Source of the DNA: Jimgerdemannia flammicorona
Lineage: Eukaryota
NCBI GenBank assembly: GCA_003990765.1
Contig: RBNJ01000104.1
Location: 1-41,681, forward strand
Length of the DNA: 41,681 bases
Reading direction: 5' to 3'
The translations under genes and the position numbers were made by a program. The notes below the pieces were generated by a model. The model was not told where the DNA came from and did no database searches. It worked only from the letters and a program-made list of their open reading frames with translations. Shown in pieces: positions 322-40,037 of the stretch. Position 1 is the first letter of the stretch; each line of letters starts with the position of its first letter.

Positions 322-2026
322 ATCTGAATGGCTTACAAGAAAGATCTGAGAACAAGGATGCTCAGTTGGTTGTAATTACCAACAATGATACCTGGTAAAA
401 ATCAAGACTATAGTCAATTGAATCCTGACAGCTAGATCAATTCTGCCTTGAAAATAATTCAACAATAAGGAAAAAACTTGGACCAAGAAAGAAGAACCCA
501 AGCATGAAGTACCTGAGCTCTCTCTATATCTACCACTTGGACACCCTTAAATCATAAACTCACCCAGCCAAGTATCTTCAAGAAACTCACTAAAGGAGAA
601 AGAAATAAACTTCAAAGAAGCAGAGCATACTTCTACTACCAAAAGACAGGACACATGGCCAGTGCCAGCCCCAACTGAAAACCCCAAACAGCAATATGAG
701 CAACTGTTACTTCTCTGCACCACCTCAACAATCTGACTACCAAAATACTGGACTTCATCAAGTTAAGGCAAACTGCTAAGGCCCCAACCAAAGGAAGTCA
801 AAAAGCAGCTGGATATGACCTATATATAGCTGAAAAAGCTATAGTTTCCAACTGAGAAGTCAAGCAAGTCTATACAGGAATCAGCATTCAAATCCCTGAA
901 GGACATATTAGAAGAATATGCTGTCATAGCAGCCTAATATTGAAAGAACTCTCAGTAGAAGGAGAAGTTATTGATGAGGATTGTATAGGTGAAATCATTG
1001 TCCTCATCTGAAACCATAGTTGGATACCCTTCAAGATTCCCATTGGTTTCTGTATTGCTCAGATCCTATTTGAGAAAATTGAGTCAACTCTGATAGTCAA
1101 GGAAGTCTCTGAACTACTGTCTACTATCCAAGGATCCAAGGGATTTGATTCATCAAACAAGACCTCAGCTTAACCTACTATAAATAAAAAAGAACAATTC
1201 TACAAGAAAATTGAAAATAGATTTATACCAAGTGACTGATGCCTCTATGGCATTAGAATGTACTCTTTTCAAATAACCAATAATTACTTCTCTTGTGTCA
1301 ATGAACTGGCCCAAAGAAGAATCAATAGAAGGAAAGCTCCTATAACTGAAATCACTACCATTTGATCAGATAAACTGCTTATACTGCAAGCTTTTGTTAA
1401 TAGAGTACCTGTTAAGATCATGATAGACAGTAGTGCCTCTGGCAACTTTATTAATAAAGAAACAGCCAACAGACTCAAGGTTCTGAATTGGTGACTACTG
1501 AGTATATGTTATACTCTAGATTATACTACTTTCTGACAATGAAATCATTCTTAGGACCCTATGGTTAAAATAAGAAAACCCTATGATTGATTGAATAAAC
1601 CACTCTCTGACTATTAAGAAAGAATGCCACAACTTCAAACTGTAAGGCAAAAAAGACCCACTCAGTTCTAGTGACTCTGAACCAAAAATTACTCATATCA
1701 ATAAGCTACAATTTAAGAAATTGACCAAGAAATGCCCTCTATTTGCTATCTCTATCTGTCTATCCAAAGAGAACCTGAAACCCCCAAAGAAGACTTTTCC
1801 AAAGTTGACAGCTGTGTTAGACCATTACTTCAGAAATTTCAAAACATATTCCTAAATTAACCTATAAAACCACCTATACCTGTCATCATTAATGATAAGA
1901 AAAAATACAAAGTTGAACAAATCCTCAACAAACACAACTATAAGAACTATCCAAATGATATAACAACACTAGATCAAATTAGAAGACCTCAATGAGAATA
2001 TTGAAAGCTAAGAAGGGAAGAGTCAA

Positions 2027-2139
2027 GTCCTTTAAGACCACTGATACTTGAAAAAATTGAGAAGATTAGCATGGCCCCTGTATAAAGATGACACTATCTT
2101 CCTGAGTAGATAGCCCTATATGGGTAAGTTTTTTTTTTT
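2027..2139 (+). pseudogene. U6: U6 snRNA retrocopy
   Basis: GAGAAGATTAGCATGGCCCCTG (2059-2080) followed by tataaagATGACAC is the U6 core with transitions. Decayed 5' stem gtcctttaagac, 3' T11 tail (2129-2139), 17-bp direct repeats at 2007-2023 and 2140-2156. ACAGAGA box damaged. Confidence 0.88.
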
Positions 2140-2156
2140 GCTAAGAAGGGGAGAGT

Positions 2157-3667
2157 TATAAGCACACAATCTCTAAGCCACCAAAATCATATATTACTCT
2201 CAGAACTAATTCAGAAACTACATGTAAGATCACAAAACAAGTTACTGAAGAGATCATCTAGTTATACAAAATATACCAGTATATATGAGGACTTACTACT
2301 AAGATACAAAAATACCAAAAGAAGTACTACAATTATAAGACTGACTCTGAACCTCTACTCATTAAGATAACCAGTCTTAGTGTACTGTACTATCACAAAA
2401 AAGAAACTGAAGTACCAAACTCAAACCAAAATGAGAAGAACCCTATCTCATCTACTAAAGGTTCATGAATTACACTTATCAACTCAAGACTAAGATATAC
2501 TGCAACTATATAAGACCTTATTACTTAGTAGAAGCAAAATATATTTGAATAACCCCATTTACTCTATCTATATTACCTCTATTGGAGAATAATAGATGCT
2601 TCATCTGAACTCAAGAAAGCTGACATTGTTAAAACCAATCTCAAGTCTATCTATATGACAGATATTACTACTAGAAATTGCCTCAGATTATAGAAAATAT
2701 CATTTCTAAGAGGTTTAAACTCTCAGCTGTGACAATGACAGCCCTCACTCTAGATAAAAATGGCCAGTCCTTGCAAATGTACCAGCAGTCTAAAAAAAAA
2801 GAGAACCAAGACCTATTATTCTTGTATAATTATTACTACTAAGAATAGTTTTAATTTTACAAGAGGCAGATATGATGACACCTTTGAAACTAATAATATC
2901 AGAAATCAGAAAACTGCTCAGATATTATCAGAAATGATGTCATCAATGGTGATATCATTGAAGACTACTCAGATAGTATCTAAATCTATAGATAGTCCAG
3001 CAGTTATTAGTATAGTTAGATTAGTCTCATATAATGTGACTGCAAACTAACTTAGCAATCAGATAATTTCTTAATATATTAGTTCACACTTGTACTATGT
3101 GACTGAATTCCAACTCAGCAAGATACTAAGTACTATATCCATATTCAGCATAGTCTAGATAGCCTCCTATTAGTATAAACTTCCCCCAGATCTCAGAATC
3201 TCAGACTTGAATAGATAAGAACAATTCAAATACAACTTCTGAACACTTCTCTACAATATCCCTTTATACAACTATTCTTAGTATAGTAATATCATTAATA
3301 GCAAATAAACCTATTTAATAATCTATAAACTACTCTTAAGTAAATCTACATCCCATTAGGTTCTATTTCTAACCATATCACAAAATTTCCTAATTGGGTA
3401 TTGTCTGCAGTGATATGCCAATTCAACTAAGCTAGTCTTAGTTTCTTAAACTTCCTGAAATATAGAAAATACTGAACATTCAGAACTAGTCCAAAAAAGA
3501 ACTTTGGTTGAGATATCAATCTAATTTTGAAATCAATAAGCATAAATAATATACTCTATATGAAATTGTTCTTGATCTTAAGAAAATAGTCTTTCAGAAT
3601 ATCCAGAACTTCTAGAAAACCCTTTCAGAAATATATAACATTTATCTTAATAAGTAACCCTCTTACA
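2157..3667 (+). repeat. 3' LTR of the deleted gypsy element (variant middle segment)
   Basis: Follows the PPT; starts TATAAGCAC (TGTAAG mutated), ends CTTACA. First ~100 bp and last ~740 bp match the LTRs at 23651 and 32237. Confidence 0.88.
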
Positions 3668-3900
3668 GGACCTCTATAATATAGGTTGTTAGATAATATA
3701 TCAGTTGCTGCAGTGATTTCTATAGTATTGATTATTGGAGATAAGCTGAATATTATTTATCTATATCATTCATATCTTATTCATTCATTCATCATTCAGC
3801 ATATATTACTTTTATTGTAATGTTATTGTTACTGAGTTATATGATTACTTATTATATCTTACTATGTCTCATCTGTTTATTTTATTATATTCTTCTCCTC

Positions 3901-5130
3901 TTAAAAATTAATATCTATATTGATTCTAAAGTTGAGAACTAAGAGAGAGGTTGTGGCATCCTTCTCATCCTCAATGCTATCACTTTCTTATCCAGTTATA
4001 AGAGGAGTTATTGTTGACTTAGTATCAAATATTGAGAAATCAATAAGGTTTGCAAATAGTTCTTGGGCATCTGCAGAAATTGGTTTAAGTGTCCTCTATC
4101 TAATATGATTGGGGCTATCCAGATACAGAACTTGCTAGTTATATCTAGAGATGTTCATTCAGTTGAGAGGTTCTTCAAAAAGATCAGAAAGATCTTAGAG
4201 TTATTGATTAGAGTTGTTATTTAAAAGGGAACTCTAATAGAGTTCACAGTGAGTAGACTTGAGAGTAATTCAGAAGAGAGCTTTATTAGTTATCTTGATT
4301 TTGAGTTCATTAATCTCAGAGCAGAAAAGGTTTTGAAAATTCTTTAGTTATATAAAGTTGAAGTTGAAGATTACAAAAAGTACATATCAGAATCTTCTTA
4401 GCTAGTCTTTGTTTATATCTATCTAATTAGATCTAGTCAGTAACTTGTTCAATAGTTAGGTCCTTGCTATATTGAGAAAGTTGGTATCCAATTTCATACT
4501 TATATCAGATTTTCAAATAGTTAGTAGTAAGATAGGTTCTTTTAATGACTTCATAGCAGTTGAGAATAGAGTGTTCCAGGTTCTGGCTGGTGAGATTAAG
4601 AGTCTCAGAGCAGTGATTTCTTTCTTAGATAGCAACCTGGATATATCCAAAGAGACAGTCTATCTTACTTAGAAGAGGTTAACTAGGGTAGACAGTTTAA
4701 CAGTGAGTAGCAGAGATTTTTGTATTCTTTTTTCTTTGAGAGAAAAGGAGATAAGGGTTGCAGTATATTTCTGCTCTGGGTATTTATGTCTTTTTACTAG
4801 TATGGTATAACCTCTTTTTAGTTTAATCATATTTCTCATGATTGTTATAGAAATGTATAATCTATTAAAGTAATCAGAGCATATACTGGTCATATGAGAA
4901 ATATTAGATATCACTGGCTAGAAATTTCCTACTTTTGACTTTAGATAGAGAATTGGTCACTCTGTTAAGATATTGTCCTCCAGACTATAGACTGAGGGTT
5001 CAAATCTAATCAGAAGACTTTCTGTAGCTACTGATAAGTACTATATATTAATATAGTTATTACATATTGTACTAATTATGTTATGGTCCTTCTGATTTAA
5101 CTATATAAGAGGTCTAGAGGAGTTCTTCAT
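3901..5130 (-). pseudogene. Degraded extra ORF (~410 codons) between chromodomain and PPT; function unknown
   Basis: One frame from ATG 5130 to TAA 3901 contains track ORF 4669-4914 and reads protein-like with ~20 internal stops. No recognisable domain. Confidence 0.5.
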
Positions 5131-6351
5131 TAGAACAATCTTTTTGTCCTATAAATTAATTATTGTATTTCTTTTTACTCAATATTCATTATTGTATTTA
5201 TATTTTCTTTATATATATTACATCTTTTAGGCTAGAGTTATAGTTCTATTCTTTACTGTGAGGTGAGTATTTATATATAGTCCTAGAGAGCTTCATATGT
5301 ATTTTCTAATACTTCTTTCTTTTTCCAGATAGTGTCATCAGTAGGATAACTCTTCAACTTAATGAGAAAGAACTGTTTGGCTTCTTTTGAGTATTTATGA
5401 ACCTTATGATCAAGAACTTCTTTAATTCAAATTTCTCATGATTATTAATCCCAATTGGAAGTAGTAGTGGAACTATATACTTAGAGAATAGGTTCTCATA
5501 GTAGTCAATCAGTTGACTGATATAGAATACTGAGTGAACTCAGATATTATAGGGAAGCTATAGCTTATAGTTAATATTCCACAATCTGGTATAGTCTAAT
5601 AATTCTGACATAAAGCTTCTTAGATAGTTATTGTATTAAGGTATCTGGATTGAGATGGTCTATTCTGAGTATACATAACTCTATCATTAATATTATAAAA
5701 GGCTTCTCTTTGCTTCAAGTTAGCATACTTAGTCTAGTAGTCTTACACTTCAATAAGAGTATCTCTTTTATTAGTATGAGGTCAGATTCAGTCTCTGCTA
5801 AGTTCTGTATAGCTATAGCTACTAATTTCACAACTATACTTAAGATTCTTAGATATTGATCATAATTTAGAAAGAATGGAGTCTTCTTTATAGAGATTTG
5901 TTAACTATTATTATAGGAAAACTCAGTATAGATCAAGTACTTATTTCAATCATTTTGCTTATAATAATTAAAGATACTAAGTATCTGCTTGAGAGTTCTA
6001 TTTGTAACTCAGTCTATCTATCTGTCTGGGGGTAATAGTCTGTGGAAAACTTCAGCTTAGTATTATAGAGTATGAAGAATGCCTTCCTGAAGTTATTTGT
6101 GAACTTGAAATCTCTGTTAGATATGGTAGTACTAGATATACTATATAGTCTGAATACTTGATTAATAAAGATTTCTACAATCTCAGGGGCCATAATAGTA
6201 ATCTTAATAAGTAAGAAATAGACTTATTTACTCAGATAGTCTACAAATACTACAATAACATCCTATTCTGCCTTGATCTTAGATAGCTCAATAATGAAGT
6301 CTATGGCAATCTAATCTCAGTTGTTGTTAGAAATAGGCAGAGATTGCAAGA

Positions 6352-6780
6352 TATAAGAGTATATAGTCAAAAACAGAATATATCCAAAATTGGCAAAATT
6401 CTGAATTCTGAAACACATATGTAATTAAAAGAAGTCTATTTCTATTTTTATCTCTAAAGTACTCTAATTACTTAGTAGAGTATTCCAGATACTTCTTGTA
6501 GTTTTGTAGAGGCATTACTAGTATTCTAATAGGTTTGAGAGAATAGAGACCTCTATGTATAAATAGTATAGGATTTGAGTATATAATAAAGGACAGAGTT
6601 GATTTAGATAATCAGAATACATATCCTGAGAATTTATAGATCTAAGAATTATATATACAAGTGAGTAAATTCTTTAGTAAATATATTATAACTACTACAC
6701 ACTTTTTCAGTCTACATCTAGACCAATTATCACTCTTTGACTATTAAGCAATTTCAGTAGAGACTGCCAAATTCCATACA
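6352..6780. mobile_element. Probable solo LTR inserted in the integrase of the minus-strand element
   Basis: Splits the integrase GLL|QSLP motif. Termini TATAAG (TGTAAG-like) and ATACA; flanks caaga / gaaga (imperfect TSD). Confidence 0.55.
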
Positions 6781-9700
6781 GAAGACCTATAGTTAGCTTA
6801 TTACTACTCTTAAATCTTTTATATATCTTATATAAGACTATTAAGGTCTTGATATCCTTAGTCATTCTTGGTCAGTAAAATTCTCTTGAGAGGAGATTAT
6901 AGGTTTTTTTTTTTGAAACCAAAATATTCTGCCATAGAAATGTTATAGAGTTTCTGTATTATTTTGAGTTATAGATTATTATTCTTGAGTACTACCTCTC
7001 TATTATACATAGTCTCTATAGATGAGTTCTTTATAGTAGATGAATCTTTTGATCATTCTTTTTATAAATTTGAGAACTTCAGCCTCAGGGTCTTCACAGA
7101 GTTAACAGAGAACTGTCTTGCTGATAACTATTCTTAATAAGCTAGATGAGATCACTAATGACTTTAATTATAAAGATAAGTTTTTTTTCTATATATCTAA
7201 AGAAATCATCAGTTATATAGTTAGTTTTGCCTGAGATATACTTGATTTTCATATCAAAGAGAGCAATTATTTCCATCTAACAGACTTGTCTGTAGATCAG
7301 TATAGACTGAGTATAAATATATTACAGAGTATAGTAATTAGTATAAGCCATAAATAGCTATCTCAGGAGAAAATAACACTATTTCTAAAGTGTAGTGACA
7401 ATGGTCAGAAGTTCTTTCTCATAGATAGTATACTAGGTTTCTACTGGTTTGAGCTTCTGGGAGAGATAGGCTACTGAGTGGTCTTCTTGGCTAAGTATTG
7501 CCTTAATGGCAATATCAGAGATATCTGTAGTCAGTGTGAATACTTTGATAGAGTCTTGTGTAATTATTACAGAAGTCTCAGTAAGGAGCTGCTTGAGGTG
7601 GTCTATAGTCTTAGTATATTCAGAGATTTATTTAGTCTTAATATTTACTCCTTTATAGGCCAGACTGGTCAGTTGGGCTTTAATTACAGAGTATCTCTAG
7701 ATGAATCTTTAGTAGTATTCTGCAATACTCAAGAAGTACTAGAGTAGCTTAAGGGTAGTAAGGATGGAAATATCCTAGAAAGCTAATATCTTTTGAGAGT
7801 TTACATTAATTCCTTTAGCAGAGATAATATATTCTAGATATTTGATCTAATCTTGATAGAACTTACAATTGCTCATCTTAACATAAAGCTAGTATTCTTA
7901 CAATAGAGTTAGTATCTGCTAGAGATGAGAGTGGTATAGTTTTACTATTTTACTATAGATCAGTATTATTAATATATATCAAAATATAAATATTAAGCAA
8001 TAATTCAAAGATATCATTTATCAGGTTTTGGAAAATTACTAGTATATTGGTCAAGCCTAAAGGTATGACTTGGAACTAGTAGTATCTAAAATATATTTGA
8101 AAGGCTGTCTTTTTAATATTTTTTTCTCAATGAGAATTCAGTGGTATCTATTTTATAAGTCCAGTAGAGAGAAAGTCTTGACCTTAAAGATCTGGTATAA
8201 TAATTTATTAATTCTGAGCAAAGTATATCAGTTCTAGATGATAATCTTATTGAGAGCTCTATAATCAATATATATTCACAGAGAGCTATCTTTCTTCTTA
8301 ATAAACAGGATGGGGGCTTTGATTGAGAAACAGCTGAGTTTAATATATTTTTAAACATCAGCTCATCCTTGAGAATTTTTAGTTCAGATTGGGCCAACTA
8401 ATAGATACTCTTATATAGTAGTTTGGATTCTAGAATGAGATCAATCTTATGTTGGATTTGGTACTTTGATAGAAGTTCTCTGAATTTCTAAAATATATAT
8501 TAGAATTCCTCAAATAGTTCTTAAACCTCTGGTGATACTGAGTTGCTTGAGGCTTCACTGACTTCTTGTACTGTGCAGATGTAGTATATATTTCTCTTCT
8601 TATAGAAGAGTCTCTTTATCTAAATGGCAGAGATGATCTTGATTCCTTGGTGGATGTTGTCTTTCTGAGACATTAGAGTGATCTTTCTTTCTTTATAAGT
8701 TAGATTGACCTCATTGGTTCTCTAGTTAATACCTGGGTTACTGGGTCAACTAAGCTTTTCCTAAGATGATATCTTGTTCTAGGAGATCCATAATACTAAA
8801 GTCCAACTTTTCTTGATATTTACTAATTTTGAATAATAGGTTTTTACAGATTCAGATCAATAGTACAGAATTGCCATCACTAAAGGTGAAACTTCTTTTT
8901 TCAATAGTTGGCTTACTTTGGGTTCCAATATTCTTAGTAGTCTTAGTACAAATATAGTTTTCAGTAGTATTACTATTTAGTAGAATATTGACATCTAGTC
9001 AGTGAACTTAATTGTAAACTTGAGTTAACTGTTCTCTTTCTTAATAGTATTGATCTCTTTATTATTATTATTCCAAGTATTCTAATTGCTATTAGTCTCT
9101 TCAAAGTCAGTCTTTTTCTATTCTTTATAAGAGATGTAGTCTTATTGAGATTCCTCAGTCTGTTGGGCTTATTATCTTTCAGATTGAATTTTGAAAACTC
9201 TGAAGAAATATGTATGGTATTCTTTGATATATTCTATATCCTATATTTGAATAGAATAAGAGTATTATTCACATAATGTGTAACTATTTATAATTCTCTT
9301 ATATCAGTTTTATCATTATTTTTATTTATAGTAGTGATTTTTTACTAGAGGATTTATTAGTAGATCTAAATCCTTTCTTGCCATAGTCTGTCTGGGTAAG
9401 TTCAGAGACTTCTTTGATAGTGAGATCTTGATGAATTACTTTGATAATAGCCTGGAAAATCCTTTGACCTATTTTGTCTTTAAATGATATATTATCAAAA
9501 TTTATAGATTTTGCTAGTAAAGTCTTGATAAATGACTCCTCCTCTTAGATCAATGTTGAATTCTTTAGTCAGACTGCTTCATTCAGTAAAATAAATATAT
9601 GTTTCTTGGAGAGCTTGTATTGTAAATCCTAGTATATACTATAGTATTAGTGCTTAGTGAAATTATAAGATTCTGACTACTATAGAGGTCATATCCAGTA

Positions 9701-11289
9701 TCAGTAGGGTGAGCCTTAGTGGAGATACATAGTTGTCTTATACTATATTTTCTATACTTTAATAACATTTTCAGAGTTCTCTTCCCTCAGGCCTTCTCCA
9801 ATAATAGTAATGGTCTGATTACTGAGTTCATCTGAAGAGTTGCTGTTTCTTTTCTCAGGACATCTGAAGGAAATATGTTCTGTTTTCTTATAGATAATGT
9901 ATAATTCTTTTTTATAAAGCTATTTCTTTTCATCCTTGTTGAGAGGTTCAGGTTTTCTATGATTTTACTGATTTCTCTGATCTCTTTAGTCATTTTTTCT
10001 GAGAGAGTTCCTCTTGTCCTAGTTGTCTTTTTTGTATTCTTGATTTTGTACTGAGTAATAAGGATTTCATGGGCTCTTCTTTATTCCTGGGCAAAATACC
10101 ATGAGTAATGTGGGCATTCTTGGAGGAGGTCCTATTTCTTATCTTTTAGATAAGTTCATCTAGTAAGAATGCAAAAAGGTAATTAGCTCTGGTGCTATTG
10201 ATTGCCAGATTGTTTTTCTAGTAGATAAGTTCTATAGTCTTGAGATAGACATCTATTCTATTAATAAAGATTTCTAAGTTCTCTTTGCTATTTTTGTGAA
10301 CTTTATCTAAACTAGTTTATTCTAAGTTTCTTATATATTGACTATATTTCTAAACTTGTTCAGTAGTAGGGTCTTGAGTTTTGAATCTACTATATGGTTT
10401 TCTCAATCTAGTCTATTTGTGGTGGCTATCTGTTCAGTTACTTGAGAATAGTTTTCTCAGATTACTAGGTATTCTTTTAAGATATACTAGATTTAGCTGC
10501 TGTTTCTATAAAGAAGATTGCAACTATTTCTACCTATGCTGCTGATATGGTAAATACTTATTAGAGTGTACTATTAATATTATTAGTGAGTATTTTTATA
10601 GATACTTAGTTATTATTCTATATATTAATTAGCTTAATATCCTATATTTACTATATTGATAAATGTTTTAATATCACTATTCTTTTCACTGAAAGTTAGA
10701 ACTCTCAAGATCTTAGAGAGTTTGTTCTGTTTAGAAATTTATTCTACTATTTTGCTAATATAGCTAGCTGGATAGTTAGGGTCTGATATTTATATCTGCT
10801 ATTATATTGATTACTAGTAGTGTGTCTGTAAAGGTGAATTTTTCTAAAGATTATTCTGTCTACTGTAATTGTAGTGCTGAGTAACTTAGAATTGCTTGGT
10901 TCTTAGAGACTAAGTCAAAAAGTTCTATAAGAGTGAGTAAACCAAACTATGATATAGATACTTATATTAGTTCTGAGGTTTAATAGATCTGATCTTTTTG
11001 ATCTATAGATCCTTGGAAAATTCCTAGGTCTGCTATTTCTTGTTGACTATTATTAGACTGATATTTTGCAGAATCTTTATCAGAATCTCTTCTCTGATGA
11101 GATAGTATATTCTTATACTAGCTGGATTCTTCAAAAAGAGTCTTGATATCTAATTAAGTGAATGGGTCTACTTCTTGATCAGAGATTTAAGATAAGAGAT
11201 CTGACTGCTTATTTTCATATCTTATAATAGTATTGACAGAATATATAGCTAACCAATAGTAGAGAGATATTTAGATAAGAGTATAGTAA

Positions 11290-11472
11290 TGGTCTGATTC
11301 AAACTCTATTTTTAGAAATTAAATAACTTGATGAATACATATCCAAATTCAATGATCTTTAGCTTGTTAGATTTCTCTTATATGGGGAAATCTAACAAGC
11401 TAAAGATCATTGAATTTGGACATATATTCGTCAAGTTATTACATTTCTAAAAATAGGTTTTGAATCAGACCA
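11290..11472. repeat. ~180-bp near-perfect palindrome (foldback/MITE-like)
   Basis: tggtctgattcaaa...tagatttc and gaaatcta...tttgaatcagacca are reverse complements with almost no loop; centre ~11381. Confidence 0.9.
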
Positions 11473-12183: not shown

Positions 12184-13775
12184 CTACAATATATTCGCTG
12201 TTAACACCCCATCATAATAGTGCCAACGTAATTGACGTCCACTCTTCTCCACCATCACCGGAATTTTCGCCGTCCTCTCTTCGTCCCACCCGTAAACCAG
12301 CACCTCTACATCATTTGGCCAACCTCCCCGCACCCACGGTTCCCCTTCCTCGACCCACTTAACGGCCTCCTCCATGCCCCAATTCCCCGCGACGCTGAAT
12401 TCAATTCTCCAATTGGACCAGCCGGGTATTTCACAGGGAAGATTCTCGTTGCTTGTAAAAAATGAAAAGAACCGGCCAAGAGCTGAAATCAGCGCCTCAC
12501 CTGGCGGGGCAAGGCAATGAAAGCGCTTCGGGGCCGAGAGAAAGGCCTCCTCGAGGGCATTCTTGCACGAGCCGAGATGCTGCATGCCGTCGATCTGTTG
12601 AGCGATGGAGGCGAGAATTTTTGTGGCTTTGGCAGAGAGTTGTTCGAGGTTGTGAAGGTGGCAGTCAAGCTGGGAAACGAGCGCGGCCTCGAAGACGTCC
12701 AATTCCGAAGTCTCCCGACGCCAGCCAACAACGTGAACGGGAGCTGCCCAGCGGCATGGGTTAAATAACGTGATCTCATCGAGAAGTGGTGATTCCGCGA
12801 GGATGTGGGTAAGGACATCCTCAAGCATCTTTAGATAGTTGGAGCGTTCTGGAGGTCTGTACAAACGGATCCCCACGTCATGAACGCGGAGACGACGGAG
12901 GTATGGGCGGAAGACGTAGGGATAATCAACGATGCTGGAAACACTGCAAGTCTTGGTAGTGTGGTAGAGGCTGGTTGCTACTTCGTTCCTGCGACGTAGA
13001 ATATGTCGAAAGGGTAGAAAACGGTCAAGAGTGAGCGAAGTGAACCCGAAAATTTCCTATATCCCTGCAAAACCTACCATACGCGGTTGACCAATCGCAT
13101 GTGAAGTATAGCGGGTATCAGCGCCATCTTGTCTCCTGAGGCAAACGTCAGTCGGAGGATGTCACGCCACAGCTCAGGAGGCAAGTCGGGCTGATTATTC
13201 ACAATGTGCCCGTCCTCAGATGCTGGCCACGGCGAGGGGGGCGAGTTATCCTTCCTTGTCAGCTTGTAGAAGTCTACCGCGACTTTCTCCATTTCATAGT
13301 AATCCCTGGGCGCAGCGACCACCTCGCCGAGCAGCGGCAGTCCCGACGTCTTGAACAACTGGTCGTAGGGACTGGTTTCCGCGAGTGGCTTACCGTCCGC
13401 GTTGGCGACGCATAGTTTCACGTCCACTCTACCGTCCGGCAATTTTTCGGAAAGCCAGAAGGTTCGGATGGTGTCGTGTCCTGTGGTTTCGATCATGTCG
13501 GGGTGCTGCGACTCGTCACGGTGTGCGCGCCGACAAGTGGGCAACTCAATCGTTTTACCAACACCGATGTCTTTCTCATTGACGAGGGGCCCCAAAGCGT
13601 CGGCGACGTGCGCGAGCCACTCCGGCTCAAAGAGTTGATAGAGTGGGGAGGTCGAGTCGGTGAAGTGGCGGCGGATGTCGCACAGATTTGCCTGCTTGTC
13701 GCATACTTCGAGGTAGGAGAAGGAGGAGGGCGAAGGGCTGACGTATAGGAGGAACGTCATGGGTAGGAGTTCCAT
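12184..13775 (-). CDS. Two-exon gene (13775-13078, 12988-12184), ~500 aa protein with internal F-box-like motif
   Basis: 89-nt GT..AG intron 13077-12989 joins the two track ORFs in frame: LPPELWRDILRL...MRLVNRVW/NEVATSLY. GC/CpG-rich with no internal stops. ATG homologous to the paralog start; an in-frame upstream ATG exists at 13874. Confidence 0.85.
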
Positions 13776-13836
13776 TTTTTGGGTAGATGTCGGAGGAAGG
13801 CAAAAAGAGAAAGAGAATCCGCAGCTGTCAGATGGC

Positions 13837-13853
13837 GAGGACACGTGATTACC
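13837..13853 (-). promoter_or_regulatory. Conserved upstream E-box (RTCACGTG) of paralog 1
   Basis: GAGGACACGTGATTACC matches 19365-19381 at 16/17 while neighbouring non-coding DNA is diverged. Confidence 0.55.
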
Positions 13854-14949
13854 TAAATTATTATTTAACGCCATAACTTAATACTATGCCAGAAACATAC
13901 TTCACCAGGTGTATGTCTAATCCAACAGGACAAGATCATTATGAAGAGAAATATATATATAAAGAGTATATAATGTGGCAACCTTCTCACTGGCTTTGGT
14001 GAATATCCATTATTTTTATTTCCAGAACGTGTAGTAGTTATGACACTTTTACTCTCAAAGCCACACTTGCCTAGTTTGTAATCTCTTAGTAACCTCACCA
14101 TTTAATTATAACCTCACTAGAGGAGTTGGTGAAAATATTTTTATAATTACAATATATCTCTAAATTTGGACGTTTAGAGTTGAGAATAATGTTGATTTTT
14201 TTTTTTTTTGAATAACTATAATTTAATTAGTGATATTATTATTTAATATTTAGAAAAAAGTAGAGCATAACATACTTAATTAAAATAAATATGAAATCTG
14301 ACTTATAAAATAGCTAAATCAATAGTATATTTAAGTTAAAAAAATAAATAAGTTAATAGTTGAAAAACTTAAAAAATAGTAAAGTCAGTAATATATTAAC
14401 TTAGATAATAGTCAAGTTAATAATATACTTATCTTAATCTAAATTCTAATCTATATTTTAATCTCAAAAATAATCAAATTGAAAATATATCAAAATTAAA
14501 AAATAAATCAATAAATAAATATTAAATATAAATATTTGAAATTAAAATTAGAATTAGAAATAAATCAGTAAAATTATATAGAATAAATTAGTAACTTAGA
14601 AATATATTATTTTATTTATTAGTAATTATATAATACTTAATTTTTCTTATTATTTATCTTTTTTTTTATTATTTATCTCATTCTTATTATTTATTTATTT
14701 TTATTTTTATTTTTTTTTACTAAATATATTACTTGATTATTCAATATACTTCTAATAGTTTTAGTATAATTGAGATATTGAATATTAGCTCTAAATATTA
14801 TATAAGAGATGAAATATATTACTATTAGCTATTTAATATATCTAATATTATGGCTTAAGTAATATATATTTAGCAGATAGATATTGTCTCATATTTAAAT
14901 AACTTATTTAAGAGTTCTGGAATTTTTTGATATTTTCTGAGATATAAAT

Positions 14950-15441
14950 TTTATTTTATTTTATTTTATTTTATTTCTATAAATATATACTAGATCTCTT
15001 TATTAACTAATCTATAATAAATATATAGTCCTTATATTACTCTGGTAGCTCCAATCTAATTACACTCTACTCTATCTAATATACTCTCTTCTTTCTATCT
15101 TCACTCTCTTAAAATCTATCAGATTGTTAGCTATCTCAATTTGTCTACTACTCCTCTCTATATTTCTTCTATTAGATATCTATGATAACTCTCTTAAGAA
15201 CTCTACTTCTGTCACTAGTATGATAGGAAACCTATTATCAATCTCTCTTATCTTGCTATCCTTTCTCTCAAAACCATCTGTCTCTTATTCTTGAATATAT
15301 ATTACTAGTATATAGCTAATTTTATCTATATCACTAATACTTATACAATAGTAAGCTACTCATTATTGATATATTTCACCAATTTTTCTCTCAAGTCATC
15401 TTATCTCTCTCTCTTTCTATCATCTTACTACTATATCTCTA

Positions 15442-15472
<31 letters not shown>

Positions 15473-16830
15473 CTATATTTCTAGGTAATCCCCAACTAAT
15501 ATTCAAAAGTTATAAAGTATCTTGTACTCTTTCAATTAATATTTAAATATCTATATAATCTCTCTCTTCTAGTATATGATATAATAATACTTATACTCAA
15601 AAACCATTCTTTTTACTAAGTATCTCAATCTAAAGTTTAATATAATATTTTTTCTCAAGATATACTACTATACTATCTAGAACTTTGGAGAAAGCTACTA
15701 TTATATCTCAGTACTCTAAGACCAGACTCCAGTCTAGTTCTATATCTTACTAATGCCTACTAACTACTAGTCTATTGGCTATATATTCTGTTCTACTCTC
15801 TGTTGATACTCTAAATAAGTACTAATGTTAAAGTCTATTAGTGGTAAATTACTCAATAGAAGTCTGTCTCACCTCTATATTATAGAACCTCATAATATCT
15901 CTCTTATATTATTATCAATATAGACTAATTTTGTGAGTCCTCTCTACCATCTCCTACCAGAATCCTCTTTACTATAAGTATCTACTACTATTCAGTCTAA
16001 TTATTAATAATAATTTACCAAAAGAGTATCTAGAAGAGAATCTTATCTCTCAGATCTTCAGCATTAATAGCACCCACTATCTGTCTTATAACTTATAGCT
16101 CTCTTTAATGACCAAGTTCTAAGACAATATAATCTCTTTAGAAAGTCCACCAGACCTAAACCTCTTCTATTTTCTGAAGTCACTAAGACCTTCTAACTGA
16201 TCTGAATTTGTCTTTTAGCTCAAATCTAGTTCTTAGTCATTATTAACAATCTCTTCACTACTTATATTAGAAAGTTTAAGTAATATGTCAGATACTACAA
16301 CTTCAGCAATTAGTGGATATAAAGAATTAATACTCTTCTAGTAAGTAAAATATAGTATCCTCTCTAACTTCAAAGAATCTTCTCTCATTTCACCATCTTT
16401 CTCTCTCACTAAGTTTTGGATAAGACTAATTTATATACTGATAAAAATATATCCAGATATCATACTATCTCTCTGATAGAGATAATAGTATCTACAATAT
16501 CTCTATCTACTAAACCATTCTCTAGCACTATTATCTCATATTTATGCCAGTGAACTTTGCCTCAGAGTTAAGTCTAACTACTATATCATCTGCAAAGACC
16601 CCAATCTTCCAGACAATCTCTAAGACCAAAAGCCTCAATATCTTATAATAAATTCTATCTATCAATAGCTCTAATTATAATATATATAGAATAGAAAATA
16701 ATAGGTCTCCCTGGAGAATCTCTTTCCTCAATAAGAATAAGATACTATAATATCTATTATATAAGATAGCTATCTGGCTACTCCTCAAAAGACTGATTAT
16801 CAATAATTAGAATTAATGAGAAATACTAAT
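14950..16830 (-). mobile_element. 5'-truncated degraded L1/Tx1-like LINE (RT C-terminal half to tail)
   Basis: Minus strand ILQGDLLFSILY ~16685-16720, GVFADD ~16585-16602; (TTTTA)n tail at ~14950-14975. Confidence 0.75.
15431..15486 (+). mobile_element. Solo poly(A) retro-insertion with TSD
   Basis: ctatatctctaggt (15431-15444) + A28 (15445-15472) + ctatatttctaggt (15473-15486). Confidence 0.8.
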
Positions 16831-17695: not shown

Positions 17696-19324
17696 TTACT
17701 CTAACTCCAAAATCCCTGATAATACCCTATTTATAGATTGCCAACGTAATTGGCGCCCACTCTTTTTCACCCTCGTCGGAAATTTCAATGTCTTCTCCTC
17801 GTCACACCCGCAAACCAGCACCGTTACACCTTTCGGCCATCCTCCCCGCACCCACGGCTCCTCTTCTTCGAACCACCTGTCGGCCTCGTCCATCCCCCAA
17901 TTCGCCGCGATACTGAATACAATTGCCGCCTTAAGCCCACATCGAAGACCCTTGTAGCCTGCAACAAATGTAAAGAGCCGGCCAAGAGCTGAAATCAGCG
18001 CCTCACCTGGCGGGGCAAGGCAGTAGAAGCGCTTTGGGGCCGAGAGAAAGGTCTCCGCAAATGCATCGTTCCACAAGTCGAGTCGCCGGAGGCCATTGGT
18101 CTTTTGAGTGATGGGAATTGTTGTGGTTTTGGCGGCAAGTTCTTCGAGCTGGTGGAGGTGGTAATCGAGCCGGGCGACGAGCGCGGGTTCGAGGAGGTCC
18201 AATTCTGAGACCGCCCGACGCCAGCCAACAACGTGAGAGGGAAAGGCCGGGCAGAATTGGTTAATTAATGTGATCTCATCGAGAAGTGGTGATCCCATGA
18301 GGATGTGGATAAGGCTATCCTCGAGCGTGTTTCGATATATGGGGAGTTCTAGCGACGGGACGGGAGGCTTGTATAAACGGCCCCCCCTGTCATGAACGCG
18401 GAGACGACGGAGGTATGGACGAAAGGCGTTGGGATACTCCACGATGCTGGAAACACTGGAAGTTTCGGCAGTCTGGTAAAGGCTGGTTGCGATTTCGTTC
18501 CTGTGATGCAGATAATGTAGAAACAGTAGGTGTAGGTTAGGAGTGGACAAAGTGAACCATTAATCTTCCCATATCTCTACATTAACCTACCATGTGCGGT
18601 TGACTAATCGCATACAAAGTATGGCCGGTATGAGTCCCGTCCTGTCGCTGGGGGTAACCCCATAGTAAAGGATATCACGCCAAATTTCTGGAGGTAAATC
18701 GAGCTGATTATCTTCGAGAGGTCCGGCCTTTGAGGCGGCCCACAACGAGGAGGGCAAGTGCTCCCTCTTTATAACCGTGAAGACGTTTTTTTCTTCCTTC
18801 TTCAATTCGAAGTAATCCCTGGGCGCAGCGACAACCTCCGGAAGTAGCGGCAGTCCCGACGTCTTGAACAAATGATCGAATGGACTAGTCTCCGGGAGCG
18901 GAGTACCGTCCGTGATGGCGACGCACAATTCTACTCGCACATTGTCGTTCGGTAAATTAGTAGAAAGCCGGAAGGTACGCATGTTGTCAAATATGGAGGT
19001 TTTGATCATGTCAGGGCGCTGCGACTCTCGGTGATCCGAGCCCAGGCAGGCGAGTAGGTCAATCGATTTGCCTATCGGTTTGCTAAAACGGATAAAAGTC
19101 TCCCTGAAGAAGGGTTGCAAAGCATCGGCGGCGCTCGCGAGCCACTTAGGGATAATGAGTTGAAAGAGAGGGGAGGCCGAGTCGGTGAAGTGGCGGCGGA
19201 TGTTATACAGTGTTGCATGCTCGTCGCAAACTATACTGATGTAGGAAACTGAAGGGTATTCAGTGTTGACGTAAAGGCGTGGGAAAGAAATTGGTTTGCG
19301 TGGGAGATGGAATAACAAGGCCAT
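17696..19324 (-). CDS. Two-exon gene (19324-18591, 18500-17696), ~512 aa paralog with internal F-box-like motif
   Basis: 90-nt GT..AG intron 18590-18501 at the same Trp codon: LPPEIWRDILYY...MRLVNRTW/NEIATSLY. Shared blocks with paralog 1 (IRRHFTDS, LFKTSGLPLL, CLAPPGEALISALGR, EPWVRGGWP). Confidence 0.85.
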
Positions 19325-19364
19325 TTTATCGGGTAGATGTCTGCTCCCTTGACAATAAAGTGAG

Positions 19365-19381
19365 GAGGACACGTGACTACC
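19365..19381 (-). promoter_or_regulatory. Conserved upstream E-box (GTCACGTG) of paralog 2
   Basis: GAGGACACGTGACTACC, ~45 bp upstream of ATG 19324. Confidence 0.55.
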
Positions 19382-19454
19382 CGAAAACCAATTAGTAAAA
19401 TTATATTACTGCGCCAGATTCGTCAAGTTTCACTGTTGGACCATCCTCCGCTAG

Positions 19455-19651
19455 CGTTTCATCAACGGCGGCCTCAAGATCAAGGGAAAGAAGAACGTTG
19501 TCACCTCAAATTTTCCTACCCTCTCGTTGATTGGTGTCGACAGCTCCACCAATATCTGGTCCGATAACAAGTTCTACAGCGATAAGACCTATGGCAAGGA
19601 TTACTACGACGGTATGGCGGATATACCCACGCCGGCGATTACGTGAGTATT
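19455..19651 (+). pseudogene. Pectate lyase (PL1-like) exon relic
   Basis: After a TAG acceptor: RFINGGLKIKGKKNVV..LIGVDSSTNIWSDNKFYSDKTYGKDYYDGMAD, then via a 1-nt frameshift THAGDYV. Resembles the fungal pectate lyase segment NVWVDH..SD..GKDYYDGLLDITHGSDWV. GTGAGT at 19643 is a possible donor. Confidence 0.78.
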
Positions 19652-22600
19652 CAGACTGACCTCTCAATTGCGCGAAGCATGTAAATGGCATCACCTTTCC
19701 CTGACATTATTCTTCAACAAAGAATATTTCTGAAGATCTGTTATCAAGATATTTATACATTTACTAAACTATTTTAATATGTAACTTATTTACTGATTAT
19801 TCTGAGTTAATTATATAAGTTTCCTGTGATATATATTGTAGATAAATATGTGGCTTCAAATTCTTTAGTATTTCTGAAATATCTGGTGAGTAATTTTGAT
19901 CTTCACTTAAGATATAACTTATTATAGATATTATAGAGAATATAATTTTATCCATTATTACCTTTCTTCAGTAACATTTAGGTTACACAACCTCTTGACA
20001 ATATTTTCAACACAGTTTCTGGAGAAAAGCTACTAGTATCATGGTAACTGTTGAGTATTCCAAGGTGCATACTGGACAGGGTGGCCCAGGTGCTTTCAAC
20101 TGACAGTATGTGAGGAGGGGCCCTGGCTTAGACAGAAGCATGAGGGGTCTGCTGGCAGGAGAATATGGTAGAAGAGAGGGAAGCACTGGAGGTCAGGGGA
20201 CAGGGAGGGTGAGCTTTGCAGATAAGGTGAAGGGGGGTCAGCAGGAGATAGGGCTGAAGGGCTGGCTTTGGAGAGGCAAGGTGATGGTAAAGACTGCAGA
20301 GCAGTTACTCTAAGGGAGAGTCTCTCTAGGGGGCTGGAGTAGTGGGGCTGGTGGTGCAGGGGCTGAGGAGATAACTGCTGATGGGAGCATAACAGGTGAT
20401 CAGGAGAAAAATCTAGATGAGACTGCTGATATTGGATCAAGTAGTGAGAAAGGCACAAGGCCTAGTGATCTGGCAGATAGTGTAATGGGACTGGTGGTAG
20501 TACTATTACTCAAGAAGTCAATCTCAGAGTTCACAGTCACCTTGTGCTTCTAGGGCTTAATAGTGATAGCAAAAATGGTCCTGGGCTGATTGCTAAGCAG
20601 GTGGCTGGAGCAGTATCTGTAAAGTTCCTAAAGAGACTAAAAGGAGTAGAGGTTGGCTTTAAGGAGGCTAGACCATTAGAGGAGGCACTAAAGACAGAGT
20701 TGACAGTTGGAGAGATGTGTATTCTGATGGTGTGCTACTTGAGGTAGTACTCCAGGATAGTGCAATTGCTAGTGAAGGGGGTACCCACAGTAACTACTGA
20801 GGAGACAAGGAGGAGAGTGGAAGAAGTCATAGCTGAGTATGGTGAGGTGGTCAATATTGGGTTCTGGGTCTGAGAGGGGACCCCATTCAGGACTGAGGAT
20901 ATTGATGTTTGAGTTCAGTTGACAGAGAAGGAGGCTACTGGGAAGGCTAGAGACTGGCCCTCAGTGATGATCTGGGGGACTTTCTTGTATAAGGTGACAA
21001 GGATGAAGAGGAGCAAGGAGGAGGAAGAGAATCTGCTAGAGGTGCTGGAAAAGCTGGGCAGAACTGTGGAGCAGAGGGTGAAGGCTTAAAAGGTGTATGT
21101 CAAGTTGATATATTTGGAAGTAGTAGATAGAAAGAGGATTTAGATGATAAGAGGTGGTGGGAATGATCTCAAGGATGTAAGAGACAGAGAGAGCTATTGG
21201 TGAAACTGAAAAGCAGGGCAAAGAAGGATACTGGTGGCATTGAAATCATGGGGAGAGCCAAGGAGAGTGTCTGGGCTGGCAAGGATAGAGAGAATACAGA
21301 GAAGGGGCCAGGAGGAGAAGAGAAGGCAAAGGGTAATGACCCTTATGTAGATGGTACCTTTGAGGTCTGAGAGCTGTCTCTGACCTCTATACCACTTATT
21401 AGATAAGGTCCAGCTTCAAGGGGCTGGGTGGCAGAAGATGTGCCTATGTGGAGTGTCCAGAGAGTATACTTTGGAGTTCTTAAGATAACAAAGAGTGGGC
21501 AGGTAGTGGTGGTGGATGAGGATGAACTAGTGGATATTCTGGAGGAAGAGGAGAAGTAAGATGAGACAGTGAGCATAGGGGCTGATATCTCTATACTGGA
21601 TAGAGGGTAGCTATTGACTCTTGGGAGGAAGGAGATAGGAAATCTACTATGGATATATAAGATAATAAATAACTTTACAGCAGAGGAGTTGGGGGAGGTG
21701 GACCTGTAAGTGATGAGTGATGAGTATTGGGTATATATCCTATAGGGTAAGAGTGTGGTAGAGGCACTGAAGGCAGAGATTCTTGTAGTTTTCCTGGAGG
21801 AGAAAGGTTATGAGGTTGATAAGAAGAGAGAGGCTAGGCTAGCAGTTGTTGCTGGTGAGAGGGCTGCTTACTGTTGGGCAGAGTGGCATAGGTTGTAGCT
21901 CTGGCAGAAGGCCTGCCTGGAATATTGCAAAGAGTTTAAGAAGAAGGAGGATGGGGAGCTCAAGGAACTTCTGGCTGAATTGGAGGCTAAGCAGACTGTA
22001 GGAGGAGAAAGCTGTGAAACATGATCTGGACCTGACTCAGAATGAGAGGCTCATAGAGCAGTAGAGGATGTATCTACTTTTATACATTATATATTATTTC
22101 TTATGAACAGTACAACCAACTTTTTTTCTTTAAATGTGAATGGGCTAAGGGGTTCATTTTGTTGATGGAACATTTTTGCTGGGCTGAAGAGATTAGAGAC
22201 CAATCTTTTTCTTTTGTAGGATGTCAGATACAAGGATGATTTAGATATACTGGAATAGATAAAGGAATGAGGAGAAGAGGCAGTTTGGAAGGACAAGGTT
22301 GGAATTCTGGTCAGGAAGGGCAGAGGGGAGATATAAGATGTGTAGAACTGGAGAGATAGGCTAGTTTGGGGTAAGTGGATTCAAACTGATCAGGAACCAG
22401 TTACAGTGGGATCCTGCTACTGTCCTGTAGTACAGAGTGAGCATATAGAGTGAGTGAAGAGGCTTCTGGAGGAAGGGCCTCTATTGGGGGCTGGAGTGGA
22501 TGTACTTGGTGAGACTTTAATATAGTCAGAGATGCACTGGCAGATAGAACTGATTGAGGGAGGGGGGTGGTAGGAAGGAGTAGAGGCTTGGAGATATAGG

Positions 22601-25680: not shown

Positions 25681-25683
25681 ACT

Positions 25684-25695
25684 TAGTAGCAGTAG
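25684..25695 (+). other. Primer-binding site, initiator tRNA-Met-like
   Basis: TAGTAGCAG 3 nt after the LTR equals TGGTAGCAG with one G>A. Confidence 0.6.

Positions 25696-39989: not shown

Positions 39990-40034
<45 letters not shown>
39141..40034 (+). mobile_element. Less-mutated internally deleted LINE: 5' UTR + ORF1 start fused to the ORF2 3' end and poly(A)
   Basis: 39141-39262 aligns with 19960-20082; 39265-39992 aligns with ~35748-36472. AATAAA at 39967, poly(A) 39993-40034. Retains CpGs. Confidence 0.8.

Positions 40035-40037
<3 letters not shown>

Follow-up and report, generated by a model that had tools for sequence, protein, structure and literature searches.

U6 pseudogenes serve as read-outs of LINE activity, and the direct repeat that flanks them is taken as proof of target-primed insertion. 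Both U6 processed pseudogenes and U6/LINE-1 chimeras have been described in vertebrates, as set out in the relevant sections of Doucet et al. 2015 (PMC4476161) and Moldovan et al. 2019 (PMC6789731). Retrocopies are also made by LTR elements: switching between templates inside the particle gives chimeras whose junctions sometimes contain 2-26 bp of sequence made de novo (the portions of Tan et al. 2016, PMC5131818, on chimera structure). The Ty1 work of Derr et al. 1991, cited in that paper, also concerns LTR-mediated retroposition. In the Drosophila cases presented in those portions, the retrocopy replaced part of the element in all instances and never duplicated it, and an element interrupted by an insert with a flanking repeat is taken by the same authors as an argument against LTR-mediated capture. 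U6 itself is packaged by retroviruses: the passages of PMC4931115 and PMC5086612 on virion RNA give about 1 copy per RSV virion and report 3'-extended U6 as nearly as enriched as 7SL in HIV-1 virions. Giles et al. 2004, as cited in PMC4476161 and PMC4931115, reported that the human genome holds snRNA copies in association with LTR elements. In the parts of this literature on retroviral U6 packaging and human LTR-snRNA copies that were examined, no description of a duplicated polypurine tract (PPT) was found.

Here we describe, in a probably fungal window of 41,681 nt (the whole stretch of DNA that was analysed), a U6 copy lying between two copies of the PPT of a gypsy element, an arrangement for which no earlier description was found in the literature searched, mostly outside subscription journals. 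The U6 copy is a mechanistic curiosity and no new kind of system: it is a single decayed copy without sign of function, its value is mechanistic, and it probably records the pick-up of U6 by a reverse transcriptase.

The U6-derived insert

A cmscan of the whole window at gathering thresholds returns a sole match, to the Rfam U6 model RF00026 at 2027-2123 (+), which scores 47.8 bits (E 4.2e-9; gathering score 44) and runs end to end over model positions 1-105 of 105, so that membership in U6 is carried by the covariance-model score over the full length. No second U6-like match appears in the window in a permissive scan (E<=1). Aligned to RF00026, the 22-nt core, GAGAAGATTAGCATGGCCCCTG, equals the model consensus exactly, and the AGC triad region is intact. 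Decay is evident elsewhere in the copy: the ACAGAGA box is broken by a 2-nt gap and 1 substitution and reads TTGAGA; in the internal stem-loop region, the sequence 3' of the core carries 4 changes, all of them transitions; and the 5' stem retains GTC/GAC alone, with 2 of its 5 pairs marked by cmscan as non-standard and its loop shortened. A functional U6 is recognized by an intact ACAGAGA box together with the AGC triad, and here the AGC-bearing core is intact but the box is not. Because of this broken box the copy is, judged from its sequence, a dead pseudogene, U6-derived but no working gene.

The insert as a whole measures 116 nt (2024-2139). Its left end is formed by three filler bases, CAA (2024-2026, +), which match neither U6 nor the element and separate U6 position 1 from the PPT copy on the left. 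Its 3' end (2124-2139, +) consists of GTAAG followed by a run of 11 T residues (T11, 2129-2139) that directly abuts the right repeat, with neither an A tail nor a LINE-derived piece at this end. No LINE similarity was found within the insert, and no other copy of it was found in the window except for homopolymer matches.

The duplicated polypurine tract and its host element

The insert lies in an element (E1) that is, from its BLAST alignment to a sister element in the same window (E2), a Ty3/gypsy deletion derivative. E2 (23650-34301, +) is complete but decayed, with BLAST and ORFs outlining the order LTR, gag-PR-RT-RNase H-IN, PPT, LTR. Its LTRs (5' LTR 23650-25678, 3' LTR 32237-34301) are 86.7% identical, and its RT-like, RNase H-like and integrase ORFs fall within 29309-31012; five relatives were found for the integrase ORF, the best at 79% identity. 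E2 sits in a LINE, which it splits into halves at 19953-23649 and 34302-36485 (+), with AATC (or ATC) repeated at its flanks. The 5' LTR of E2 starts with TG directly after the flank. As ATC, AATC and AATCTG are all acceptable readings of the repeated flank, the first base of the LTR can be placed only to within 2 nt. Elsewhere in the window, no Pfam family was matched by the tandem ORFs. The ORF at 13074-13877 (-) found 0 homologues among 754 candidates, and the stretch at 12187-13056 (-) gave weak leads (scores 0.90-0.93) to hypothetical or F-box-like clusters of Basidiomycota and Ascomycota, with a feature-search recognition of 2278, under the 2300 mark; on these weak leads a fungus is the likely host.

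E1 lacks RT, RNase H and integrase. Its internal region (324-2006, +) retains the part with gag, dUTPase-like and protease sequence, along with the ~180 nt that immediately precede the PPT, and aligns with E2 in four blocks (324-1486 with 27279-28442, 1481-1856 with 28526-28902, 1847-1952 with 31591-31696 and 1946-2023 with 32158-32236). Homology to E2 starts at 324, positions 1-323 are unrelated, and the 5' part of E1, including its 5' LTR, lies beyond the start of the window. The two deletion junctions share 7-10 nt with both E2 sides, as expected from template switching, and a DNA-level deletion gives the same pattern; the deletions lie at least 78 nt upstream of the insert, none being located at the insert itself. 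The 3' LTR of E1 (2157-3667, +) starts with TATAAGCAC and ends with ...CTCTTACA; it aligns at 2157-2236 with 23651-23729 and at 2925-3667 with the ends of both E2 LTRs. Its start differs from that of E2, TGTAAGCAC, by one G>A change.

A 17-nt direct repeat flanks the insert, with 16 of 17 positions identical between the left copy (2007-2023, +; GCTAAGAAGGGAAGAGT) and the right copy (2140-2156, +; GCTAAGAAGGGGAGAGT). In E2, the same segment is present once, uninterrupted, at 32220-32236 (+; GCTAAGAAGAGGAGAGT), directly before the 3' LTR. Two separate BLAST alignments, that of 1946-2023 given above and that of 2140-2201 with 32220-32280, share these positions, so both flanks of the insert overlap the same 17 nt of E2. 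Because the segment directly precedes the 3' LTR in both elements, it is identifiable as the PPT of the host gypsy element. Such repeats are rare here, the window containing two pairs of 17-mers that agree at 16 or more of 17 positions at a spacing of 60-400 nt, of which this is one. Nothing of the element is missing at the insert site, where 17 nt are duplicated, and the right edge of the repeat (2156) abuts the first base of the 3' LTR (2157); the PPT adjoining the LTR remains intact. U6 and the element share the same orientation (both +), the U tail facing the LTR-proximal PPT copy. No microsimilarity or shared bases were seen at either insert junction, the 5' junction carrying the three filler bases. 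The chance that a random insertion would place a repeat edge 0-2 nt from a PPT/LTR junction is about 1e-4 to 7e-4, an estimate that generously assumes 3 such junctions in the 41,681 nt, 2 having been identified.

The original prediction had read this locus as a full-length, decayed U6 copy with a T11 tail, flanked by a 17-nt duplication inside a gypsy PPT that leaves one PPT intact and that has an uninterrupted counterpart at 32220-32236, and each of these points agrees with the results above. To these are added the coincidence of the repeat edge with the LTR boundary, the shared orientation and, as discussed below, the poly(A) found on all local LINE footprints and the mismatch between primer and tail.

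Proposed capture in the gypsy particle and competing explanations

Several features of the locus are established: the U6 identity of the sequence, both insert ends, the repeat and its placement at the LTR boundary, an orientation common to U6 and the element, and the missing A tail. The packaging of U6, two template jumps and the order of these jumps are inferred. The repeat edge at the PPT/LTR boundary (2156|2157), together with U6 in the orientation of the element, points to the element's own reverse transcription: a + strand U6 with its U tail toward the LTR-proximal PPT is exactly what minus-strand copying requires, whereas random insertion would produce it half the time. Both ends of the insert correspond to ends of an RNA, one at model position 1 and the other at the U run, with three filler bases at the 5' junction and no A tail. 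We tentatively favor, at a little short of an even chance, the view that the U6 is a dead retrocopy captured within the gypsy particle while the element itself was being reverse-transcribed, as opposed to an insertion into finished DNA. With slightly more reserve, we suggest that the locus may still bear the trace of an "out-and-back" template jump made by the LTR-retrotransposon reverse transcriptase, which would have jumped off after the PPT, copied U6 end to end and come back at the RNA end at PPT/U3.

In such a capture, U6, probably 3'-extended or oligo-uridylated, would be packaged with the element RNA in the virus-like particle, where minus-strand DNA synthesis would copy U3 and then the PPT. 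RNase H would cut the template at the PPT/U3 junction, a step needed for the plus-strand primer, and the growing DNA end, 17 nt upstream of the cut, would leave the template for the 3' end of U6, which would be copied from the U tail to the 5' end with the addition of about three untemplated bases. The nearest free RNA 3' end, to which the DNA end would then return, is the one at the PPT of the original template, still held close by the PPT hybrid that resists RNase H. Because synthesis would have returned to the RNA end at the PPT/U3 junction, the PPT would be copied a second time before synthesis continued upstream, giving a product in the order internal-PPT-CAA-U6-T11-PPT-LTR; with a working PPT kept next to U3, the chimera could be completed and integrated by integrase. 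The 17-nt "TSD" may thus be a twice-copied PPT and no target-site duplication. In retroviral enzymes, the distance between polymerase and RNase H is 17-18 nt. In Ty3, the corresponding distance is about 13 bp and the PPT has 12 nt (PMC5371799), so that the fit of the 17-nt repeat to the retroviral spacing was dropped as evidence. Models based on plus-strand priming, with U6 as primer or with a nick at the PPT/U3 junction, were also set aside, since they predict that the left PPT copy adjoins an antisense U6, or require T-rich sequence on the upstream side of the PPT, and the locus shows neither.

On the other hand, an uninterrupted element with a foreign insert and a 17-nt flanking repeat is the textbook signature of target-primed reverse transcription (TPRT) into DNA already in place, and 17 nt is within the range of the local LINE duplications (13-14 nt or more). 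Also against capture, the junctions lack the microsimilarity seen at 25 of 29 junctions in the results of Tan et al. that deal with junction structure (PMC5131818). Moreover, the position argument is post hoc and would be weakened by a nuclease preference for purine tracts, and the uncertainty of up to 2 nt in the LTR start also counts against it.

TPRT by a local LINE, as proposed in the original prediction, is a serious rival to particle capture, plausible to us although at clearly less than an even chance. It would involve a bottom-strand nick at the left edge of the PPT, copying of a U-tailed U6 and a top-strand nick 17 nt away, leaving a true TSD. This is consistent with the 16/17 repeat of a segment that is single-copy in the sister element, with the full-length 5' end of U6 and with the presence nearby of LINEs that were once active: the LINE split by E2, which has an RVT_1 match, an AATAAA and an A13 tail (36473-36485), is bounded by a 13-nt duplication (19940-19952 / 36497-36509), and an A28-only insertion at 15431-15486 carries a 14-nt repeat. 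U6 is also a classic LINE passenger in vertebrates, where the conclusion of PMC4476161 proposes direct initiation on snRNAs ("template choice") for some classes, and fungal LINEs produce chimeric retrocopies with 10-20 bp repeats, as described in the sections of PMC2104539 on these chimeras.

However, the U6 copy has no A-rich tail or LINE 3' fragment, whereas the LINE-type footprints in the window are polyadenylated in 3 of 3 cases (A13, A28 and, at 39993-40035, A43). In the classification given by Doucet et al. (the relevant part of PMC4476161), stringent LINE clades give chimeras only and poly(A)-type pseudogenes end A-rich; measured against their groups II-IV of LINE-made pseudogenes, which have a target-site duplication of variable length, the locus shows a 17-nt repeat (16/17) that PPT re-copying would give equally, and shows neither an A-rich tail nor a fusion to the 3' end of a 5'-truncated LINE/SINE. 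U6 is likewise not part of the Magnaporthe chimeras in the sections of PMC2104539 that list their components. The bottom-strand primer end needed for TPRT, ...CTTCTTAGC-3', is without complementarity to oligo(U) and cannot pair with the tail; for the nick-site preference of the LINEs, the window offers two target sites. A top-strand nick on the PPT/LTR boundary would further have to arise by chance, at the probability estimated above for a repeat edge, in addition to the 1-in-2 coincidence of orientation. TPRT by the local LINEs, if true, would imply a retrocopy begun on a bare U tail and lacking an A tail, an unusual product for LINEs of the poly(A) type.

We consider it improbable that the insert arose from a DNA-level event, in which a U6 cDNA, or a U6 gene fragment with its T-run terminator, was captured in staggered-break repair or in a replication slip at the purine tract without dedicated retrotransposition machinery. 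Purine/pyrimidine tracts are fragile, and the three extra bases upstream of U6 position 1 would suit such an origin. The T11 could also be a gene terminator and no RNA tail, because long T runs can close the U6 genes of fungi: in the description of the yeast gene in PMC5855946, the terminator is T10 and the RNA tail no more than 4-7 U. However, the insert begins within 3 nt of the transcript start and stops where the T run stops, with no promoter or downstream flank, as expected of an RNA copy and unexpected of a random genomic fragment, and end joining does not usually leave a clean staggered duplication of 17 nt.

More remote still is the proposal, also made in the original prediction and not retained here, that the copy belongs to a U6-headed SINE-like family spreading on its own. 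U1- and U2-headed SINEs exist, according to the survey portions of PMC4494074, and the copy has flanking repeats. A SINE would be recognized by a body or LINE-derived tail behind the head and by many dispersed copies, but the 5 nt of GTAAG alone between the U6 match and the T run leave no room for either, the 41.7 kb hold one copy with no weaker U6-like match, and the local LINEs need the poly(A) that this copy lacks. Lastly, a functional U6 gene lying in the transposon by chance, as might be read from the above-threshold score over the full model and the intact AGC triad region, is effectively ruled out by the disruption of the invariant ACAGAGA box, and the 4 transitions, the decayed 5' stem and a flanking duplication of host-element sequence, which implies that the copy arrived as an insert, leave it a negligible chance.

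Comparison with known systems

If capture in the gypsy particle is correct, LTR elements, beyond LINEs, would make complete snRNA pseudogenes with repeats mimicking target-site duplications, and such a repeat would, by its length, reveal how far the RNase H cut lies from the polymerase site. Small-RNA copies inside LTR elements would then be misassigned, and a TSD-like repeat beside a PPT should not count as a LINE signature.

Like the chimeras of Tan et al. (PMC5131818, sections on chimera structure), the locus carries a cellular RNA copy embedded in sense orientation in a single LTR element, here with the internal region of E1 to its left and the PPT and LTR of E1 to its right, everything on the + strand. 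Hallmarks that depend on poly(A) are absent, junctions can include a few de novo bases, and the host elements are discontinuous or non-autonomous. On the other hand, the cargo in those sections is mRNA, usually partial, which replaces part of the element with microsimilarity at most junctions (25/29), whereas here a small pol III RNA is copied in full, the element is not discontinuous at the insert but keeps all of its sequence and gains a second copy of 17 nt, and the return jump would land at the PPT/U3 junction. With the vertebrate U6 pseudogenes, the locus shares a full-length U6 with a U run and a direct repeat of TSD-like length. The vertebrate copies finish either with an A-rich tail or with a LINE/SINE that is truncated at its 5' end and followed by poly(A), as characterized in the corresponding part of PMC4476161; here neither is present, the copy lies exactly at a reverse-transcription landmark of an LTR element, and the host is probably a fungus.

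Retroviral packaging supplies the premise of U6 in a particle, although the viruses concerned are animal retroviruses and the human copies are ancient and partly independent insertions in the assessment by Doucet et al. (PMC4476161, as far as it covers them). The capture proposed here, if correct, would back the older proposal that snRNA pseudogenes are made by retrovirus-like particles with evidence at the sequence level from a fungus. A fungal parallel is offered by MINE of Magnaporthe (Gogvadze et al. 2007, PMC2104539, sections describing the element), which likewise copies a non-coding RNA, is bordered by repeats of 10-20 bp and is made by template jumps of a reverse transcriptase; in those sections MINE always includes the 3' part of a LINE (MGL) and has the WEIRD RNA as its 5' partner, whereas the present copy is of U6 and has no LINE part.

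The TRIMp3 families Cassandra, Helenus and Ajax (Kojima 2024, PMC10886601) likewise combine small pol III RNA-derived sequence with LTR retrotransposons, including fungal (Pucciniales) families. In TRIMp3, a 5S or tRNA piece, thought to be a promoter, lies inside the LTRs of tiny elements and is proposed to originate from SINE insertion into an LTR. At the present locus no LTR of the window has an Rfam match, and the U6 lies outside the LTR, upstream of its start at 2157, between two PPTs and decayed. If capture is correct, LTR elements equipped with pol III RNA modules could originate in the same way.

The U6 copy and its flanking repeat

A U6 snRNA copy lies within a decayed Ty3/gypsy element, between two copies of the element's polypurine tract (PPT). 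RF00026 (U6) was the sole Rfam match in the window at curated thresholds (2027-2123, + strand; 47.8 bits against a gathering score of 44; E 4.2e-9; model positions 1-105 of 105); a permissive Rfam scan (E up to 1) gave no second U6-like match in the window, and ARAGORN found no tRNA there. In the Rfam alignment, the 22-nt U6 core, GAGAAGATTAGCATGGCCCCTG, equals the model consensus without difference, the four differences 3' of the core are all transitions, and the 5' stem is weakened. Immediately 3' of the match come GTAAG and then T11 (2129-2139), and 5' of it comes CAA (2024-2026), which is neither U6 nor host-element sequence. A U6 copy with a decayed 5' stem and a T11 tail had been the original prediction, and both the full-length match and its significance bear it out. 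In the same alignment, a 2-nt gap and one substitution interrupt the ACAGAGA box, leaving virtually no chance that this is a working U6 gene. Between the match and the T run, GTAAGT (2124-2129) corresponds to the fungal 5' splice-site consensus. Some fungal U6 genes have mRNA-type introns, and bases 2124-2129 may be native U6 3' sequence, a 3' extension, or the start of an intron.

The insert (116 nt) is bracketed by GCTAAGAAGGGAAGAGT (2007-2023) and GCTAAGAAGGGGAGAGT (2140-2156), and no further copy of it occurs in the window. The related element E2 has a single copy of the 17-nt sequence (32220-32236), to which both insert flanks align by BLAST, confirming the predicted duplication and uninterrupted site. 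Only two pairs of 17-mers matching at 16 or more of 17 positions and spaced 60-400 nt apart exist in the whole window. The repeat is the purine-rich plus-strand primer site directly 5' of the 3' LTR. The LTR starts of the host element E1 (TATAAGCAC) and of E2 (TGTAAGCAC) match apart from one G>A change, which puts the last base of the repeat at 2156 and the first of the LTR at 2157; this start is exact to within 2 nt only, since the repeat flanking E2 has three possible readings (ATC, AATC, and AATCTG).

Host elements and their neighborhood

E2 (23650-34301, + strand), a Ty3/gypsy element, is decayed yet complete and has RT-like, RNase H-like, and integrase-like ORFs. Its LTRs of about 2 kb each (23650-25678 and 32237-34301) are 86.7% identical (1749 matches, 268 mismatches, and 59 gap columns), and the mismatches comprise 244 transitions versus 24 transversions. 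Upstream of its 3' LTR (2157-3667), E1 aligns to E2 by BLAST in four blocks (324-1486 with 27279-28442, 1481-1856 with 28526-28902, 1847-1952 with 31591-31696, and 1946-2023 with 32158-32236), so that no RT, RNase H, or integrase is left in it. Relative to E2, it carries two internal deletions of about 2.7 kb and 0.46 kb, and at both junctions 7-10 nt are common to the two E2 sides. This gag/protease-only derivative of the E2 family, seen from within the window only and with its 5' end outside it, may represent a non-autonomous subfamily. Positions 1-323, which stand in place of the expected upstream part of E1, are unrelated to E2; they match themselves in inverted orientation over 73 nt (199-271), hold repetitive short ORFs, and may be another small insertion. 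By eye, E1 and E2 share a dUTPase-like AGYDLY motif (700-855). Gypsy elements with dUTPase are known in basidiomycetes. Another decayed gypsy-type element (about 3700-11000, - strand) has an RNase H match (7436-7627, E 1e-11) and weak dUTPase matches (9329-9786). Decay in the window is strongly transition-biased, with two C/T changes for every A/G change on the + strand, and CpG observed/expected is 0.24 over the whole window, consistent with repeat mutation that is methylation-driven or RIP-like; the changes in the U6 copy are of the same kind.

E2 splits a full-length, G-rich LINE of about 5.9 kb (19953-23649 and 34302-36485, + strand), which has an RVT_1 match (34355-34603, E 2.3e-9), ends in AATAAA, A13 (36473-36485), and then (TA)n, and is flanked by a 13-nt target-site duplication (19940-19952 and 36497-36509). 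A related LINE, about 67% identical to it in aligned stretches, ends in A43 (39993-40035), and the 5' end of a third lies at about 41271. An A28 run (15445-15472) with a 14-nt direct repeat on both sides (CTATATCTCTAGGT and CTATATTTCTAGGT, 13 of 14 identical; site 15431-15486) looks like a LINE insertion cut down to its poly(A) tail. All three LINE footprints in the window thus carry poly(A).

Elsewhere, two tandem paralogous two-ORF genes (12184-13877 and 17696-19405, - strand; 72-80% nucleotide identity, 5.5 kb apart) are GC-rich, show no decay, and have an F-box-like LPPE(L/I)WRDIL motif; they gave no Pfam match and no sequence homologue, and Atlas leads point weakly toward fungal F-box-like clusters. 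The signs of a fungal, perhaps basidiomycete, source for the window are weak. A GC-rich open stretch with CpG (19400-19640, + strand) that ends in GTGAGT resembles a host-gene exon and adjoins the LINE 5' end. An AT-rich stretch (11322-11440, - strand) resembles MIR6135, a plant miRNA family, below the Rfam threshold (54.7 bits; gathering score 99), most likely by chance or because of a palindrome.

Origin of the insertion

Our tentative preference is that U6 was captured during the gypsy element's own reverse transcription, which on the evidence here is slightly likelier than target-primed reverse transcription (TPRT) by a LINE. Minus-strand DNA would have copied U3 and then the PPT, left its template for co-packaged U6, copied this from the U tail to the 5' end, gained a few untemplated bases there, and resumed synthesis on the RNA 3' end made by RNase H at the PPT/U3 junction; the PPT would be copied twice because that RNA end would remain tethered via the RNase H-resistant PPT hybrid. 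Such a capture would explain why the repeat edge is the PPT/LTR boundary, why the U tail faces the LTR-proximal PPT, why poly(A) is missing, why filler bases are present, and why a functional PPT is kept next to U3, and it would make the common orientation of U6 and E1 obligatory. What such a capture presupposes is documented in the literature: chimeric retrocopies arise from LTR elements via template switching (PMC5131818), the RSV virion holds about one U6 copy, and 3'-extended U6 is enriched in HIV-1 virions nearly as much as 7SL (PMC4931115; PMC5086612). Giles et al. (2004), as cited in PMC4476161, reportedly found snRNA copies associated with LTR elements. On the other hand, the junctions lack microsimilarity, the chimera gives no sign of integrating or spreading within the window, the spacing between polymerase and RNase H in Ty3 is about 13 bp rather than 17 (PMC5371799), the position argument is post hoc, and the locus has a duplication, whereas the published capture cases show replacement (PMC5131818).

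Less probable, although a serious competitor, is that a LINE made a bottom-strand nick where the PPT starts on its left side and copied a U-tailed U6, a top-strand nick 17 nt away producing a true duplication. A continuous element interrupted by an insert with a repeat on both sides is the standard insertion signature, and Tan et al. rely on interruption plus repeat to distinguish LTR-mediated capture from an insert that entered an element already in place (PMC5131818). The local duplications of 13 and 14 nt also place LINE duplications here in the range of 17 nt. However, the insert has neither an A tail nor a LINE 3' fragment, whereas processed snRNA pseudogenes, according to Doucet et al., end A-rich or as LINE/SINE chimeras, the latter being the only product of stringent LINE clades (PMC4476161). 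In addition, the primer end, ...CTTCTTAGC-3', is unable to pair with oligo(U), the second nick would fall on the PPT/LTR boundary only by chance, estimated at 1e-4 to 7e-4 (tolerance 0-2 nt; three PPT/LTR junctions assumed in the window, a generous figure, two having been identified), and the common orientation of U6 and E1 would be a 1-in-2 chance. Of the earlier proposal of a retrocopy made by LINE/TPRT, the retrocopy is sound, but the mechanism is slightly disfavored by the missing A tail, LINE piece, and primer pairing.

It is improbable that a piece of a U6 gene including its terminator was captured at the DNA level. Yeast U6 has a T10 terminator and RNA tails of 4-7 U (PMC5855946), which makes T11 long for a primary transcript, but the insert limits coincide with transcript ends. 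A U6-headed SINE, the other earlier suggestion, is more improbable still, the insert having no body, no LINE tail, and one copy in the window.

Relation to known systems

Chimeras formed by LTR-mediated retroposition resemble the locus in principle but differ in cargo and junction type, whereas vertebrate U6 processed pseudogenes and U6/LINE chimeras resemble it in cargo but differ in 3' end and context. U6 in retroviral particles, a further close case, provides the premise for capture. Magnaporthe MINE chimeras are fungal LINE template-jump products in which the LINE part is always present and U6 is not involved (PMC2104539), and TRIMp3 elements carry 5S or tRNA pieces within their LTRs (PMC10886601). 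The literature searched, with few subscription journals among it, contained no account of U6 flanked by duplicated PPTs. The locus misses a defining feature of each family compared and is therefore filed only as a U6-derived pseudogene in a gypsy element; it is a single dead copy, yet an informative footprint, and can be classed as a variant form of known retrocopy-forming processes.
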